Below are positions 7,318 to 60,892 of a DNA stretch of 64,000 nucleotides, one piece after another (within the stretch, counting starts at the first letter, position 1; the number at the start of each line of letters is the position of its first letter). The stretch spans positions 7,068,001-7,132,000 of the forward strand of contig OX597817.1 in assembly GCA_951406725.2 (NCBI GenBank). The letters run 5' to 3'. This DNA comes from Octopus vulgaris (lineage: Eukaryota). The notes beneath the pieces were generated by a model. That model was not told where the DNA came from and ran no database searches. It was given only the letters and a program-made list of their open reading frames with translations. The position numbers and the translations under genes are program-made.

Positions 7318-8325
7318 ATGGCAGATCTATTTAACTTGCAAAGAGGTCAAATTGTCGTGCTCATATGGGAGGCGCTAGCATAACGAAAACAGCCGAAATG
7401 TTTGGTGCATCAAGAAGTAGTTTCGAAAGTAAGATAACCTTTGAGAAAAAGGGTAAAACCTTCTCATCAAGGCAAAACTCCAGAAGAAATCCCAAACTTT
7501 CAGATAGGGACTGTCGGATCACAAAAATACAGCTCCCAAAATCACTGTAGAGCTTAATGACCACCTCGAGGACCCAGTTTCCACAAAAACTGTACGCCGA
7601 GAGCTGCGCAAAGGGGGATTTCACAGGAGGGTTGCAATCAGAAGACCACTACTTTGAAAAGCAAACGTTACAAAGACAAATGTTTAAAGTGGAGTAAAAA
7701 CCTACAGAATTGGTCCCTAGAGCAGTGCAAGAATGTTATTCTTTCGGATGAGCCATCCTTTATCATATATCCGACAACCGGCCGAGTTTACTTATGGAGA
7801 CAACCAAAAGAAGCATTTGATCCAGACTGCCTTCTTCCAACTTTGAAACAGAGAGGAGGATCTGTAATGATCTGGGAGGGATACATCTTGGAAATCCGCC
7901 GGCCCGATGATTTCCCTTCATAACAGAATTAATATTCAAGACTAAATAAGCATATTATCTGATCAAATTCATCCTATGTTTGCAGAACTCTTTCCGGAGT
8001 GAAACACAATCTTTCAGGATGATAATGTACCAATTCACACAGCTAAAGTTCTTACTGAATGGCACGAGGAACATCTTCGTGAAGTTGAACATCTTGTCTG
8101 GCCACCACAGTCATCAGATCTCAATATTATTGAACATTTATGGTGCATTTTAGAAAAACAAATAAGGAGTTGATATTCTCCACCATCATCAGTACAAGAA
8201 ATGGAGACTGTTTTAGCTGAAAAATGGACAAAGTTCCTTTGGAAACAATTCAGACTTTGTACGAGTCCATACCTCGTAGAATTCAAGCTGTAATTACTGC
8301 CAAAGGCGGTCTTACTCCATATTAA
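7318..8325 (+). pseudogene. Tc1-like DD36E transposase pseudogene
   Basis: Across frameshifts and stops it reads MADLFNLQRGQIV..GASITKTAEMFGASR (HTH), NVILSDEPSF (D1), FQDDNVPIH (D2), WPPQSSDLNIIEHLW (E), IQAVITAKGGLTPY*; 36 residues lie between D2 and E. Confidence 0.9.
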
Positions 8326-8413: not shown

Positions 8414-8640
8414 CTCTTTTTACTCTTTTACTCTTTTACTTGTTTCAGCCATTTGACTGCGGCCATGCTGGAGCACCGCCTTTTAGTCGAGCAAATCGAC
8501 CCCGGGACTTATTCTATGTAAGCCCAGTACTTATTCTATCGGTCTCTTTTGCTGAACCGCTAAGTGACGGGGACGTAAACACACCAGCATCGGTTGTCAA
8601 ACAATGCTAGGGGGACAAACACAGACACACAAACATACAC
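8411..8640 (-). mobile_element. SINE family 1, 3' half
   Basis: (tactcttt)n tail plus tgtttcagccatttgactgcggccatgctggagcaccgcc..., homologous to 12972-13190. Confidence 0.9.
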
Positions 8641-9411: not shown

Positions 9412-9566
9412 TTTATGGTAAGAAGCTTGCTTCCCAACCAGCTGGTTTCAGGTTCAGTCCCACTGCGCAGCACTTCGGGCAAGTGTCTTTTATTATGTAT
9501 AAGCCTTAGGAGGCCGACCAGTATTCTGTGAGTGAATTTGGAAGACGGAAGCTGAAAGAAGTCTGT

Positions 9567-9570
<4 letters not shown>
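9412..9570 (+). mobile_element. SINE family 1, 5' half (tRNA head and core)
   Basis: tggtaagaagcttgcttcccaacc...ggttcagtcccactgcg (B box-like)...gtgagtgaatttggaagacggaa. Confidence 0.8.
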
Positions 9571-9600
<30 letters not shown>

Positions 9601-9607
<7 letters not shown>

Positions 9608-9885
9608 AAATAGAAAGATGAATTTTCTTGTGACAGATTATTCAAAGGTTTAACCGATACCTGGGTAGCAAAAATCACAGCGGAAAACAGCGCGGTTGGA
9701 GATAAGACCATTTGGTGTTGCAACCGTGCGTTGGAGCGGATAATTGAAGTTTAATATTATTAGTGAATGGAATAAATGGAGTTGAACGAAGATTGTACAG
9801 AATACCTTTTATTACATTAGAATGTAATAAAAGGTATTCTGTACAATCTTCGTTCAACTCCATTTATTCCATTCACTAATAATAT
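9601..9885 (-). mobile_element. (TA)n-embedded cassette ending in a perfect 65-bp fold-back palindrome
   Basis: Arms 9754-9818 and 9821-9885 are exact reverse complements with a 2-nt spacer; 9601-9818 is homologous to 37957-38150; (TA)n on both sides. Confidence 0.8.
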
Positions 9886-10859
9886 ATATATATATATATA
9901 TGACTAAGTTAAAAATTGTACGTACTCTGTGACTTATTAAAACAAAACCGGGTGTTGTACAATTACAGCATTTTTCGACGTAATCTCCTTGCTCTTCGAT
10001 GCATTTCTCCGAGGTTCACAAAATCGTGTGATGTATGAACCAACATCAACCAGTTCGATCAATTGAGCGAATGCACATTGAAGTAGCAAATTAATAACTG
10101 AGCGTTTTTCCTACAAACATTTGCGCACTTAACGTAAGTCTCAAGTGTGACAAGGTAGTTATTGGTGCAGTCCATCTGATGGGATTCCCCACAGTTCAGA
10201 TCTTTCCAATATCACTTGCTATATTCTTCAAGCGAAGAATATGGCAGAAAGATTTTTATCTAAAATACCACGCAATCGAATCGAACCCGAGTGTCGCATA
10301 ACGAACTTCGTAACCACTAATCCATGCCTTGATCCCAATTGAATACGAATAAAATTAGATGCTGAACCAAAATACGTGCTGTTTTAGGAGTGCTATTCTG
10401 TAGTCTTGGTAGGATGCAAATGAATGTATTTGATTTTAATGTTTGTATCATTAATATGCTATGCACACTGCAAACAATGTTGAACGTGTAAACTAAAGTA
10501 TTTGATAATATCCCTGGTTATAGAGCGTTTCAATTGGCTAAATATTTATATATCCGTATTTAGGAGAGAGCTTTGCGTGCTTTGACAGTTCCGAGTTGCA
10601 AAAGGTTTACTCAAGCAGAAGTACGACCACCTCCACCAACACCACCACCACCGCAATCATCGACATCGTCGTCGGTGCTGTTGTGGTAGATATCATTGTC
10701 ATTGCCATCATCAGCATCATCATCATCGATATCATCATCGTCATCATCACTTTCTTACTAATGAAATAAACATTATTCAACGAGAAAGAAAGTGAGAGAG
10801 AGAGAGAGAGGTAGAGAGAGGAGTAGAGAGAGACCTTCTGGACAGTGTCTCAAGCAGCG

Positions 10860-12056: not shown

Positions 12057-12217
12057 ATGCGTATGAGTGCTGTATGGTAAGTAGCTTACTTACCAACCAC
12101 ATGGTCCCGGGTCCAGTCCCACTGCGTGGCAACTTGGGCAAGTGTCTTCTGCTATAGCCTCGGACCGACCAAAGCTTTGTGAGTGGATTTGGTAGACGGA
12201 AACATCGTATATATGTG

Positions 12218-12250
<33 letters not shown>

Positions 12251-12489
12251 CTGTATGTATGTGTGTGTGTGTGTGTGTTTGTGTGTTTGTGTTTGTCCCC
12301 CAGCATTGCTTGACAAATAATGCTGATGTGTTTACGTCCCCGTAAGTTAGCGGTTCGGCAAAAGAGACGGATAGAATAAGCACAAGGCTTACAAAGAATA
12401 AGTCCCGGGGTCGATTTGCTCGACTAAAGGCTGTGCTCCAGCATGGTCACAGCCAAATGACTGAAACAAGTAAAAGAGTAAAAGAGTAA
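12057..12489 (+). mobile_element. Full-length tRNA-derived SINE family 1 with internal (TA)n(TG)n
   Basis: A/B box-like head, central core, internal microsatellite and 3' tail ...gactgaaacaagtaaaagagtaaaagagtaa. Confidence 0.9.
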
Positions 12490-12971: not shown

Positions 12972-12974
<3 letters not shown>

Positions 12975-13189
12975 CTCTTTTGCTCTTTTACTTGTTTCAG
13001 TCATTTGACTGCGCCCATGCTGGAGCACAGCCTTTAATCGAGCAACTCGACCCCGGGACTTATTCTTTTGTAAGCCCAGTACTTATTCTATCGGTCTCTT
13101 TTGCCGCTAAGTAACGGGGACATAAACACATCAGCATCGGTTGTCAAGCAATGTTAGGGGACAAACACAGACACACAAACACACACACG

Positions 13190-13231
<42 letters not shown>

Positions 13232-13396
13232 TACGACGGGCTTCTTTTAGTTTCCGTCTACCAAATCCACTCACAAGGCTTTGGTCGGCCCGAGGCTATA
13301 ATAGAAGACACTTGCCCAAGTTGCCACGCAGTGGGACTGAACCCGGAACCATGTGGTTGGTAGACGAGCTACTTACGACACAGCCACTCCTGCGCC
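12972..13396 (-). mobile_element. Full-length SINE family 1
   Basis: The reverse complement begins ggcgcaggagtggctgtgtcgtaagtagc...ggttccgggttcagtcccactgcg and ends in the (gtaaaaga)n tail. Confidence 0.92.
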
Positions 13397-29741: not shown

Positions 29742-30149
29742 ATCACTTTGATCACTTTGACCGACCAGTCCGACAGGCGTCCATTTGACACCGCTGGTCA
29801 CAGCACGCTGTCCACTCCTCTCTGGATCGCGCCTTTCTCATCCACGTGATCCAATCGTCCTCCTGAAATCGTAATTCCACCGTCGTGGAGGTCTTCCGGG
29901 TAGTCTTTTCCGCTCACGCGGGTACCAGTCGACAATTGCGTGCGTCCACCGATTATCGGTGAGCCGGGCGACGTGTCCAGCCCATCTATACTTGCTGCGT
30001 GTATACTCTGCGATGACATCTCTCACGCCGGACTTCTTTCTGATGATGTTGCTATTTATGTGCTCTCTCAACGAGATACCAAGCATTGACCTTTCCATGG
30101 CTCTTTGAGCCGTTACCAGTCTTTGCTGTTCTCCCTTTGTGGTAGCCCA
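29742..30149 (-). mobile_element. 5'-truncated RTE-clade LINE inserted in (TA)n
   Basis: ORF 29838-30176 gives AQRAMERSMLGISLREH...KYRWAGHVARLTDNRWT...WYPRERKRLPGRPPRRW (RTE ORF C-terminus); 3' tail (caaagtgat)2; (TA)n on both sides. Confidence 0.9.
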
Positions 30150-30844
30150 TATAAATATATATATATATATACACACACAATATGGGTGGGTGGCTAATTT
30201 GAAACTTTACAACCTAAAGGCAGAAATAAATACTTCACTAAAGTGAACAATGACAGTAATCGAATTGAATTGAATAATCAGCATTGGTATTACTAGAAAT
30301 AAATGTCAAAACAACTTAATAACCACAAAAGCACTATCTTAATGAGTTGACAAGGGAGAGAAACTCACTACGCTCGCAAATGATTTCGCATTTTGATACT
30401 TAACGCAGCTTAACGTTCATCAGTGCCCCTCACCGCCCCTAAGGTTAAACTCGTCTCGCCTTCCCAGCTTATGATTTCCTTCCCCAAAATTTCGGGCCTT
30501 GTGCCTAAAGTAGAAGAGATTTTGTTAAATCAGCCATAAATTTATGTATATATATATTATAAGTAATTATTTGGATTTTGGGTGTATATCTATTAGCATG
30601 CCGATTAAACCACATTCACCGTTTGGGCTACCTGATGTCATTCACAGTTACACCAAACACCTGAGGTGACGCAGACTGCGCTGATTAGTGCAACACAGCT
30701 TGATGCAGAGAACGCAAGAGGGACAGCTGCAGGATTGGTCGAAACGATGGTTGGGTTTGATAAAGATTCGTACCAAATCCGTTTTCCGTTCCCATCATCA
30801 ATTATGTGTGTGAGTGTGTGTTTGTGTGTGCGTTCGTGTGTGTG

Positions 30845-37956: not shown

Positions 37957-37962
<6 letters not shown>

Positions 37963-38213
37963 AATAGAAAGATATAATCTTGTAGTAGATTAATCAAAAG
38001 TTTAACCGATACCTTAGTAGCAAAAATATACGGTTGGAGGTACAACCATATGAACCGTGCGTTGGTGCGGATATTGAAATTAGAACATTATTGGTGAATT
38101 GAAGAAATGGAGCTGAACGCAGATTGAACAGAAATCGTTTTATTTCATTCTACACGTTTTCGAAAGGCACAAATTACAAAATCCGATGGAATAATGGGAC
38201 CATATTGTGTCTT

Positions 38214-38217
<4 letters not shown>
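37957..38217 (-). mobile_element. (TA)n-embedded cassette with a 5'-truncated hammerhead (sister of 9601-9885)
   Basis: Minus strand reads GA-gaaagacacaa...ttgtgcctttc (stem II)-GAAA-ACGT-GTA-gaatg; C15.2 is missing and the CUGAN part of the core is replaced by (TA)n. Confidence 0.65.
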
Positions 38218-43935: not shown

Positions 43936-44376
43936 AATTAACAGGATGAGTTATATATATATATATAGAAATTAACAGAATGCGATAAAAATAATCCGAG
44001 GCTGTGAAAGATTTCAGAAAATTTATAAATAGAAGGTCGTACAGGAATCTTATATGTATACCATTCTGCCTAAATAATGGAACTGAAGATAAAATATCCC
44101 TGCATATCTCACGTCTGTTCTCATTCCTCCACTTCAATCTCTATTTTATATCTTATGTAGAATAACTGATGCTTAAGCATTTTCTCACACCGTCTCCGAT
44201 GAAGCGTTATATAAAATATCCCGGAAACAGCTGTAAGACCATCTATTTATAAATTTTCTGAAATCTTTCACAGCCTCGGATTTTTATCTCATTCTGTTAA
44301 TTTCTTTCATATATGCAGATGCTGATATATGACCTACGTTGGGCTCCTCATTCGCATAATCACCGAACCTGGAGCT

Positions 44377-44453
<77 letters not shown>

Positions 44454-44646
44454 TATGAGAGGTAATGGTGTCAATAAAACCCAAATGTGTCAAGTAATGC
44501 TGAGTAAGTGCTGTGGACAGACTATAGTTAAGCTCCAGGCTTGGTGATTATGCGAATGAAGAGTCCAACGTGTGTACATGTAAAAAAAATCTCAGAATGG
44601 GAAACTCTTTCACAGCCTTGGATTTTTATCTCAGTCTGAAAATTTC
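43935..44646 (+). mobile_element. Rearranged Penelope-like pLTR cassette with nested inverted repeats
   Basis: IR 43967-44044 / 44231-44305; IR 44336-44384 / 44523-44571; direct copy at 44607-44646 of 44264-44304; hammerhead at 44192-44239; (TA)n interspersed. Confidence 0.7.
44192..44239 (+). ncRNA. Minimal type I hammerhead ribozyme, U4C variant
   Basis: Stem I gtct/agac; CCGAUGA 44196-44202; weakened stem II; GAAAC-AGCU-GUA 44224-44235. Confidence 0.6.
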
Positions 44647-52180: not shown

Positions 52181-52250
<70 letters not shown>

Positions 52251-52277
52251 AAATAAAAACATGATGCCAAGTATTCA

Positions 52278-52355
52278 GCGGTACATATGTTTCGGGCCTT
52301 TATTAGACGGATTTATAACAATGCATAATATGTGTCTATGGCCTTCTTCAGCCGC
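52278..52355 (-). ncRNA. Type I hammerhead ribozyme (minimal stem III, long stem II) in a (TA)n-flanked cassette at 52249-52520
   Basis: Minus strand reads gcgg-CUGAAGA-aggcc.tagac...gtcta..ggccc-GAAAC-AUAU-GUA-ccgc; stem I gcgg/ccgc; stem II ggcc/ggcc plus tagac/gtcta. Confidence 0.82.
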
Positions 52356-52520
52356 GCACAATTACTACTTCAAGGACATGTATTACATCAAAAATTCTAC
52401 GTTGGGGATGCAAATCCTCTCAGTCGCGTACGACATAATGCGGTACCAGCACACTCCACCACCTACATCACTAAACGGTATATACAGGTGCTTACAATTA
52501 TCAAGTACTCACCCTGAATT

Positions 52521-52584
<64 letters not shown>

Positions 52585-53380
52585 GTATATTTGTGTGTGT
52601 GTCTGTATGTATGTATATGTGTGTATGCAAATTTACACACACGTATATAATTGTGTATGAGTTTAGCTGTTTATCACGTGTGTAAGCGCATGTATTTGCC
52701 TATACGTGTGTGTTTTGTGTATGCGTGTGTTTGTGCGCGTGCGAGTGTGTTTATGGTTAGAAATGAAATTTTCTTTACCAGAATGTGGGACATTCATATC
52801 GTGCCGGTGTCTCTACATTACCTTAATTCGCATACGATATTCTGTCCGATTTTAATCGGATAAAATGTGTCTCTCATCCGCTTAGCTCTGTAAAATCCAC
52901 TGCTAAGTACTAGAATTATGGACATGAATTATGCCTATCTTAACAACTTACGCAGCGAAATAATCGTTTTTATTTTTACTATTGCTTACGTATTTCCTTA
53001 ATTCTCTATTGAGAAAAAAGCAACCTTTAATCGTGTATATTATTGTGCACACCGCATTAATGTTTTGTAACCGATCTATGTTCAAATCGACACAAAATCC
53101 ATTTCAAGTTCTGAATAAATGAATATATTATAATGGAGGAAAAAATGTACTGAAAATGTGGTTGGTTGTCATATGGGACGTCACCAAGCCACTAGTCTCC
53201 TTCAAGATTAAATATTTGCAACAATAGAATATGTTGCCAAATAACTATTCTCCTGATTACACTCACACACACACATGCATATATATATATTGAAAACAAG
53301 TGGATGTATTCCACTGAAACTAGGTAAATAGATTCTTCAAACAGGGACAGTCAGTAGCGACACCTGCTGGGTCTGACTAC

Positions 53381-53423
53381 GCTGCATTGATAAAGGGCAA
53401 ATACCCTGAAACATGTCTGCAGC
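53381..53423 (+). ncRNA. Minimal type I hammerhead ribozyme, U3-A8 covariant core, in a TA-flanked cassette at ~53291-53590
   Basis: Stem I gctgca/tgcagc; UUGAUAA 53387-53393; stem II aggg/ccct; GAAAC-AU-GUC 53408-53417. Confidence 0.72.
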
Positions 53424-54062
53424 TGTCTGACTGGCAGGAAGAAGCGGCTGACCTCCCTTGTTCGAAGGTTTATAATGGACGCAGGTTGTGTGTCAAATAG
53501 CTAGCTTGAGGCGGTGGCCTCTTGGAGCTAATCAGCGACAGCTTTAGTCTTATATTTATAAGACTGCCATGTAACTATGGCGATAACTATTAATATATAT
53601 GTATATTTACATATATATATATATGTATATATGTATATACATATCTCTATAATTGTGTCTATGAGAGTATATTTGGATATAAATAGGAGAGAAAACAAAA
53701 GACCGATGTGTGTATGAAAAGTATTTGTTCGAGACTAACAGTGTTCTTTGACATAGCTTCAGTCGTCATTTATTACTCAAGAGGTAAGAAACACGATGAT
53801 AAAAGTGAACTCATACAAGCGGCGGCAGGAATCCACCGCTTACAATAATTTAATTCAAATATAAACATATCTGCAGCAGAATGTGCCGATGTGATTGAGT
53901 GTGTAAGTGCGTATAAATTGTAGGAGACATGTGTACAAGTGTATATAGTATTATAGTATTATATACACACACATATATTTATATGTGTATGTGCGTGTGT
54001 GTGTGGGGGAGGGGGGTGTACGTTTATATATGCACATACATGAAAATATATATGCGTTTATG

Positions 54063-59965: not shown

Positions 59966-60892
59966 ATATGTTTCTTTATTAGCCACACAGGGCTGCACAC
60001 AGATAGAACAAATTACAAGGTAGAGCTTTTCTTTTGAAGGTTTAAAAAATAAAAAAAATAAAAAATAAAAAAATAAAATAAAAATAAAATAAAAAGGGGG
60101 GTCGATCAAAAGGGATCGTAAAAGGAGAGAAAGAGGACAAAAAAAAAGGGGGGGTTAAAAAAAAAGGGGGAGAGGAAAAAAATTGATCAATAGGGATCGT
60201 TATCACAGAAATGTCAATATGAAGTGTAAAGGGGAGGACAGGTGAGGTTTACCCGTGGAAAGAAAAGCCTACGGAAAAGACCACGGTAACCTCGGTCAAT
60301 GAAGTCACATGTTATATTTCTTTTTTTTTTTTTTTTTTTTTTTGCAAATAAGCAACTCTCTGTATTAATTTTTACGGTTCATAGAATCATAGTCAAGGTG
60401 GCTTCGTCATTCATACGTGCCATCCTTGCTACATTCACCCATCTTTTTTTAAAACATTCACTAGACAAAACTTGCCTCTCTACTCTCACTTTTTTCTTCA
60501 AGTGATACTTGAAGAAGTTGATGAGAGATTGACCAGAGAGGAAAGTGTTTGTCTCTAATCCTTTCAGACGCGTCCACCAGATACATTCTTTCGCCATAGC
60601 CACAAGTATGATAAAAATAGCTCTTCCTTCCCGTTTGAAGGAAGGAGGCGTGACGATATTAACGATAGACTCGGCTGATAAACCGACACGTCCCACACGT
60701 GACAGCAGTCGTTCGACATAAGCCCACAGGTGGGAAATTGCTGGACACTGCACGATTGCGTGCAGAGCGGTTTCGTCGCTCTGCCCGCATCTCGGGCAGG
60801 TCGGCCCCGTGTTTCTCGAGCCATGCCTATAGAGCTTATCCCGAACGGGTAGCGCTTCTCGGTAGCACCGCCAGGCCAGGGATCTCTGGAAA
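59966..60892 (-). mobile_element. 5'-truncated Tx1/L1-clade LINE (zf-RVT C-terminus and 3' UTR) inserted in (GATA)n
   Basis: Uninterrupted frame 60892-60379: FQRSLAWRCYREALPVRDKL...CPRCGQSDETALHAIVQC...LW...AKECIWWTR (CCHC finger typical of L1/Tx1 ORF2); the 3' UTR ends in aataaagaaac. Confidence 0.88.

Follow-up and report, generated by a model that had tools for sequence, protein, structure and literature searches.

The locus at 9.6 kb of the window (the whole 64-kb stretch of DNA analysed) raises the question of whether a ribozyme may decide where an inserting retroelement turns back on itself. At its centre is a perfect inverted repeat, the arms of which (9754-9818 and 9821-9885) are complementary at 65 of 65 positions and flank the dinucleotide AG. 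Arms of this kind have a chance expectation of about 1e-30, and local alignment does not extend them beyond 65 bp. The palindrome is unique in the window among perfect, not low-complexity inverted repeats having arms of at least 14 nt and spacers of 0-11 nt. The initial annotation had described the perfect 65-bp palindrome exactly as it is written, and had given correctly the letters and coordinates both of the palindrome and of a sister copy located elsewhere in the window. The long dsRNA hairpin that a transcript was supposed to form is a computed fold only, predicted at -98.7 kcal/mol.

The palindrome marks the point at which two pieces of one abundant repeat, 217 and 67 bp long, meet head to head within a (TA)n tract. 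Positions in the repeat are numbered from the predicted ribozyme cut, the first base after it being +1. The left arm, found on the + strand by palindrome search, lies within a 5'-truncated main copy (9602..9818, - strand), spanning +218 to +2 downstream of the predicted cut according to the alignment to the sister and to contigs of the family. The right arm belongs to a short inverted copy (9819..9885, + strand), covering -1 to +66 in the arm alignment. A (TA)n run adjoins the element 3' end on the left (9569..9601); it is the tail of a SINE-like repeat, and likely the insertion target. The tract 9451-9561 is repeated elsewhere in the window. On the right, the outer end of the short copy has a 4-nt ATAT overlap with an (AT)10 run (9882..9901), in which a target-site duplication is indistinguishable from the microsatellite. 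Both window copies of the repeat, this one and the sister, have (TA)n on both sides. Being truncated at the 5' end and accompanied by an adjacent inverted copy, the structure at 9602-9885 is probably an ordinary Penelope-type inverted-end insertion; such an end had been claimed, and the head-to-head truncated copies and (TA)n flanks sustain the claim. As a single insertion, the locus is real and of an ordinary kind.

Hammerheads in terminal repeats are standard for Penelope-like elements (PLEs), and the repeat is likely the ribozyme-bearing end of one of these. Inverted 5'-truncated copies and palindromic junctions are described as standard in endonuclease-bearing PLEs (PMC3846280, PMC8557442). 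Features shared with the insertions reported there are the head-to-head arms, the palindromic junction, the 5' truncation, the (TA)n target and a terminal piece of about 200 bp. In contrast to known PLE insertions, the inner ends of the two arms coincide, at the ribozyme site, the outer end of the short arm is internal (+66) and is not the element 3' end, and no ORF is linked to the element. Self-priming on an antisense template has been proposed for PLE palindromic junctions, with no tie to a ribozyme in the available portions of the two papers (PMC3846280, PMC8557442). No report mapping PLE inversion points to the hammerhead site was found in the literature covered, which includes few subscription papers.

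The cut site is predicted from the sister copy (37957..38217, - strand), which lies between (TA)n runs and continues beyond the site as far as G8 of the ribozyme core (-67). Aligned over 192 columns, with several indels, sister and 9.6-kb copy agree in 163: 54/65 in the arm and 109/127 in the remainder; 38149 of the sister is homologous to 9818. The minus strand of the sister reads GAAA-ACGT-GTA|GAATG, as the initial annotation had it, with the predicted scissile bond at 38151/38150. Hammerhead residues (G8, A9, G10.1-C11.1, G12, A15) are numbered by general convention. The remnant found in the sister (38151..38217, - strand) includes G8-A9 (38217-38216), helix II (38215-38162), GAAA (38161-38158) and GUA (38153-38151). 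Helix II has 10 bp and one mismatch, and is closed by G10.1-C11.1 between GA and GAAA; its predicted stability is modest (z -1.9, 8 of 200 shuffles being equally good). The half-motif occurs once in the window and 0.05 times per simulated window, by a descriptor written after seeing it. Of the CUGA box the sister keeps only G8-A9, and then ends into (TA)n; its helix III is decayed, an A being found opposite G16.2. In contigs of four public runs, X1-X4, the family sequence beyond 9818 includes GAAA-CATGT-GTA, located behind a helix II strand containing GGCC. C15.2-G16.2 and the palindromic loop are thereby restored, and helix III is a proper one. The CUGA box and helix I of the 9.6-kb family are unseen in the sister and in the loose ends of contigs, which show 30 letters. 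Rfam search of the sister gave no hammerhead match, and the best 150 of 219 Rfam matches in the whole window are all microRNA-type hairpins with scores below gathering. The partial motif is located about 190-220 nt from the element 3' end. Judging from the letters, 38151/38150 and its homologue are probably a hammerhead cut site. The claim of such a site is largely sustained, by G8-A9, the long helix II, GAAA, GUA and the helix III of the contigs.

G10.1-C11.1, GAAA, a tiny helix III, a palindromic loop and GUA are shared with the type I hammerheads described in pseudo-LTRs of metazoan PLEs (PMC4209133). Helix II differs, being a 54-nt extended hairpin in the window family and 7-8 bp long in the metazoan PLE hammerheads of the same paper; it is nearer to the 'half core' spacing (35-50 nt) reported for some Naiads (PMC8557442). 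Paired hammerhead motifs on opposite strands, 100-700 bp apart, have also been described (Cervera and De la Pena 2014, PMC4209133).

Against the assignment to PLEs stand the unseen CUGA box and helix I and the lack of a linked gene. No reverse transcriptase or GIY-YIG gene was found linked to the element, a search for longer homologues of one of its six frames having given none; three element frames are blank in Pfam, and codon signal is absent in all six. The exact 22-nt element pattern had 0 matches in metagenome, viral and prokaryote contigs. Non-LTR retrozymes, the units of which are reported to measure about 300-390 bp and to carry a hammerhead each (PMC7229834), were considered and rejected: both window copies are solitary, and are not tandem repeats of about 300-390 bp. 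A 575-nt contig of X3 has 406 nt of upstream sequence, for which neither a second piece nor a joint is listed. The published octopus Naiad families were rejected similarly, as 0 of 5 short motifs were found in the supplementary file of Craig et al. 2021, a comparison in which one motif had wrong letters and line breaks can mask a match; the Naiad ends compared bear no resemblance to the 9.6-kb element. Motif search in the supplements of two papers gave no consensus for the family. According to the supplement of one annotation, PLEs occupy 6.83% of the genome of O. vulgaris.

The junction has been looked for in the contigs of X1-X4 (104, 1037, 400 and 11 records; X3 is RNA by guess, the other three are DNA-type), aligned to 9600-10250, a reference that could reveal turn-backs at this one site only. 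Most copies read through the cut site. Read-through is clearly the rule in the family; the ribozyme site serves as a stop only occasionally, and is not where the element normally has its 5' end. The apex of the window palindrome falls at +2/-1, the main arm ending at +2 and the short arm starting at -1; its proposed coincidence with the predicted cut is hence correct to within 2 nt. The apical letters T-A-G (9818..9820, + strand) are those of positions -2, -1 and +1 of the uncut element, and T9818 fits either arm. The turn-back had been read as a-gaatgtaat. The letters are right, but A9819 need not be an extra base: in X1, X2 and X4, contigs of the read-through form follow the right arm starting at 9818 (loose ends 'before 9818').

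The exact window junction, CATT-AG-AATG, is crossed by no contig listed among the four runs. In X2 and in X4, a single contig has TC inserted behind 9817, forming a spacer-free palindrome CATTC-TA-GAATG, the length of the match beyond the insertion being not given. Depth of these contigs at 9817 is 106.8 of 553.7 in X2 and 35 of 226 in X4. The TA-centred junction, found in no X1 or X3 contig, is present in two of the four runs, i.e. in two of the three DNA-type ones. The junctions of X2 and X4 may belong to loci other than that of the window, or to this locus if the window has lost 2 nt; a mild sign from the sequences points to separate loci. No strand-changing joints are listed in X1-X4 contigs, a weak negative since high-copy contigs are short. 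A depth drop toward the apex was rejected as evidence, because the same edge effect is seen at the 3' end. The right flank opens with a middle-repetitive element (9926-10008), with a summed depth about 20-30x that of unique flank.

It is very unlikely that the palindrome is an artefact of assembly or of a chimeric read. The exact junction being spanned by no listed contig would suit an artefact, and so would an apex 2 nt shorter than the X2/X4 junction, as a read error at the hairpin tip could give. However, the occurrence of CATTC-TA-GAATG in separate runs argues against an assembly artefact, the near-identical junction being found in independent runs at depths of 35-107. The arm, moreover, is only 65 nt long and ends in target-like (AT)n, followed by a flank (9926-10250) assembled in other runs too, and another locus ends at the same +66, into (AT)n, in two X4 contigs with a loose end before 9754; the outer end of the short arm is thus recurrent.

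The perfect arms had been attributed to a recent event or to gene conversion, and comparison with the contigs agrees with the former, the insertion being probably young. An X3 contig differs from the window element at 1 of 169 bases, and the right flank differs from X1 and X2 contigs at 12 of 325 (3.7%). So few changes in the element would have a probability of about 0.07 if the insertion age were half of the 3.7% flank divergence. X3 contigs leave the right arm and flank uncovered, and have no bearing on expression. In one X1 contig 195 nt left of 9926 are without match to the reference, which excluded the left flank; this is a hint of an empty allele at the locus. Both arms share a minority letter, T at 9773 and A at 9866, where the family has G in 94-99% of depth (X1, X2, X4).

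The initial annotation had explained the apex by supposing that self-cleavage gave the template RNA its 5' end, and that the cDNA snapped back at this end. The letters at the apex speak against a self-cleaved template: the right arm includes A(-1) and the X2/X4 junctions have TA, and cut RNA lacks both. Snap-back fares no better, as a loop of 0-2 nt would be hard to prime within one molecule. Cleavage could be rescued if synthesis of the cDNA ended by run-off at the 5'-OH (+1), a T or TA was added, either untemplated or from (TA)n, and the cDNA then snapped back or met a second one. This is unlikely. It would account for arms that both end at the same place (+2/-1) and are identical, down to the same minority letter, and for a TA-centred X2/X4 junction that stops short of the stronger ACATGT palindrome; in addition, R2 proteins offer documented cases of snap-back following full-length cDNA (PMC11371274). 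Yet the letters to be added are those of the uncut sequence, an agreement expected, if random, 1 time in 4 for the window and 1 in 16 for TA. The locus has in common with R2 snap-back junctions the order of cDNA end, its complement and target (PMC11371274). R2 proteins are however reported to prime at internal cDNA positions, and the window junction, in a different element class, has a spacer of 0-2 nt (PMC11371274). Metazoan PLE hammerheads are described as cleaving weakly in vitro (PMC4209133), and in the available account of PAc, the Anolis Poseidon element, no RNA reads began or ended at the ribozyme site (PMC11167929); both observations go against cleavage.

Other insertions of the window bear on the same point. 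A hammerhead motif scan identified three further complete or near-complete hammerheads in (TA)n-bounded repeats (44196 +, 52351 - and 53387 +), and 0 in 40 simulated windows. The first is part of a head-to-head insertion of an unrelated family (43968..44304, + strand), which came from the motif scan and was not chosen for its breakpoint. Its complete motif (44196-44235) reads CCGATGA..GAAA-C-AGCT-G-TA. The inverted arm (43968-44044) is identical at about 91% and has its end at -5, in the centre of palindromic loop 3, and 5 of 5 letters beyond the cut match the uncut template; this arm cannot derive from cut RNA. An end at -5 would have a chance of about 3% were ends uniform over about 235 nt, an estimate made on a single case. 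A partial copy of the 3' end of this family is found at 44603-44646, and an inverted pair (44344-44376 / 44531-44563, about 91%) around (TA)n(GA)n adjoins the insertion. The second element (about 52249-52521, - strand) has a complete motif at 52351-52282, with CUGAAGA, a long helix II region and GAAA-CATAT-GTA; layout is as in the 9.6-kb family, with no alignable similarity. The third (53291-53590, + strand) hosts a compact hammerhead (53387-53417), in which helix I has 6 bp and helix II 4 bp, and whose core, TTGATAA, is the U3-A8 variant. The U3-A8 covariation has been noted in Cercyon elements of Schistosoma (PMC4209133).

Together with the two copies of the 9.6-kb family, these make five hammerhead-bearing insertions in the window, of which four reach upstream of the cut, to -67, about -127, about -191 and about -240, the last three boundaries being approximate and taken from the flanking microsatellite or junction. 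Both inverted arms of the window end at most 5 nt upstream of the cut site, neither of them precisely on it. A preferred region finds its main support here, with one extra case; that the arms end upstream of the cut is the main argument against a cut template. The retained A(-1) or TA, the read-through majority, the four insertions reaching upstream and the arm at -5 leave cleavage with snap-back unsupported.

The same data have been weighed against chance, i.e. an ordinary Penelope-type inversion breakpoint that fell at the site and was noticed through a very large scan. Set against the depth summed over the two bins next to the apex, palindromic contigs account for only 0.16% in X2 (106.8/67,696) and 0.05% in X4 (35/64,655), contig depth not being equal to copy number. 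Such low figures would suit chance, any TA can be a symmetric joining point, and the starts of the main copies, from -67 to about -240, are scattered. Still, two of two inverted arms end next to the cut site, a symmetric junction needs both arms ending together, and similar junctions occur in two of three DNA-type runs. Chance is therefore rather unlikely, and the coincidence with the ribozyme is probably not fortuitous.

The evidence leans toward a folded, uncut ribozyme over self-cleavage and snap-back. The best explanation, held tentatively and at less than even probability, is that each cut strand of the (TA)n target would prime one cDNA, that both cDNAs would stall where the folded, uncut ribozyme has its helix III / GUA region, and that a T or TA overlap would serve to join them. 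The +66 end of the short arm would be an internal priming site, chosen by AU-rich overlap with the target, or the product of a later deletion. All junctions observed carry uncut-RNA letters past +1, and the sister ends within the ribozyme core at -67, as a stall would have it. PAc has been reported to cut and extend both target strands in vitro, and is predicted to act as a dimer (PMC11167929). What it inserts is mostly unprocessed RNA, also when mutation has made the ribozyme dead (PMC11167929). Cutting of both strands, the predicted dimer and the unprocessed template favour two stalled cDNAs. AT-rich targets and a start of reverse transcription downstream of the hammerhead are common to PAc and the window locus; the PAc work, in its available portions, offers no mapped 5' or inverted junctions (PMC11167929).

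Several points go against a stall. If uncut RNA were read freely, the 6-nt palindrome ACATGT at -9..-4 should be preferred to TA for joining, and the use of TA would point to a hard stop, for example a real cut. The TA at the X2/X4 junction may be untemplated or target-derived, and these junctions may be the same locus as that of the window. PAc reverse transcription is reported to start at sites lacking homology to the target (PMC11167929), a poor fit with +66 priming by overlap. The minority letter common to both arms suits a single template as well.

In a different proposal, reverse transcriptase would read to U16.1, hop to the 5' strand of helix I and write GAATG; the hairpin so formed would self-prime for 65 nt and be joined to (AT)n. 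The 5' strand of helix I is complementary to +1..+5 by definition. The proposal yields exactly the CATTC-TA-GAATG of X2 and X4, and explains the minimal loop, the identical arms and the non-standard +66 end, all with no need of cleavage. It is nonetheless quite improbable, as the 5' strand of helix I of the family is unseen, the asymmetric comparison case at -5 is left unexplained, and no precedent was found in the literature searched. It is possible, though not likely, that the hammerhead itself sets the turn-round: RNAs could be paired as dimers through the palindromic helix III, and cDNAs be joined at GUA/loop 3, or a minority of RNAs could be cut.

The role of hammerheads in animal PLEs has been called unclear (PMC8557442). 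If the hammerhead sets the turn-round, inverted-end breakpoints would be a genomic record of ribozyme action in animals, and the retention of the motif, in spite of a cleavage that is weak, and dispensable in vitro, would be accounted for. If arms end preferentially at the ribozyme, breakpoint maps drawn from existing genomes would separate cutting (+1) from folding or dimer pairing (-1 to -9) and from chance. The 9.6-kb locus and the -5 case found 34 kb away pose this breakpoint test without settling it.

Remnants of other mobile elements are interspersed in the window. The tract 7561-7923 (+ strand) resembles what we take to be a piece of Tc1-type transposase, and 29838-30206 (- strand) presumably the end of an RTE-type LINE; neither has a Pfam match at E 0.05. 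Another remnant, that of a LINE, is located at 60382-60870 (- strand) and includes a zf-RVT domain (PF13966, E 5e-06). Inverted pieces of a further repeat, 88-95% identical and about 480 nt apart, are found at 12107-12489 and 12972-13346, and the pieces at 8419-8640 and 9451-9561 are related to this pair.
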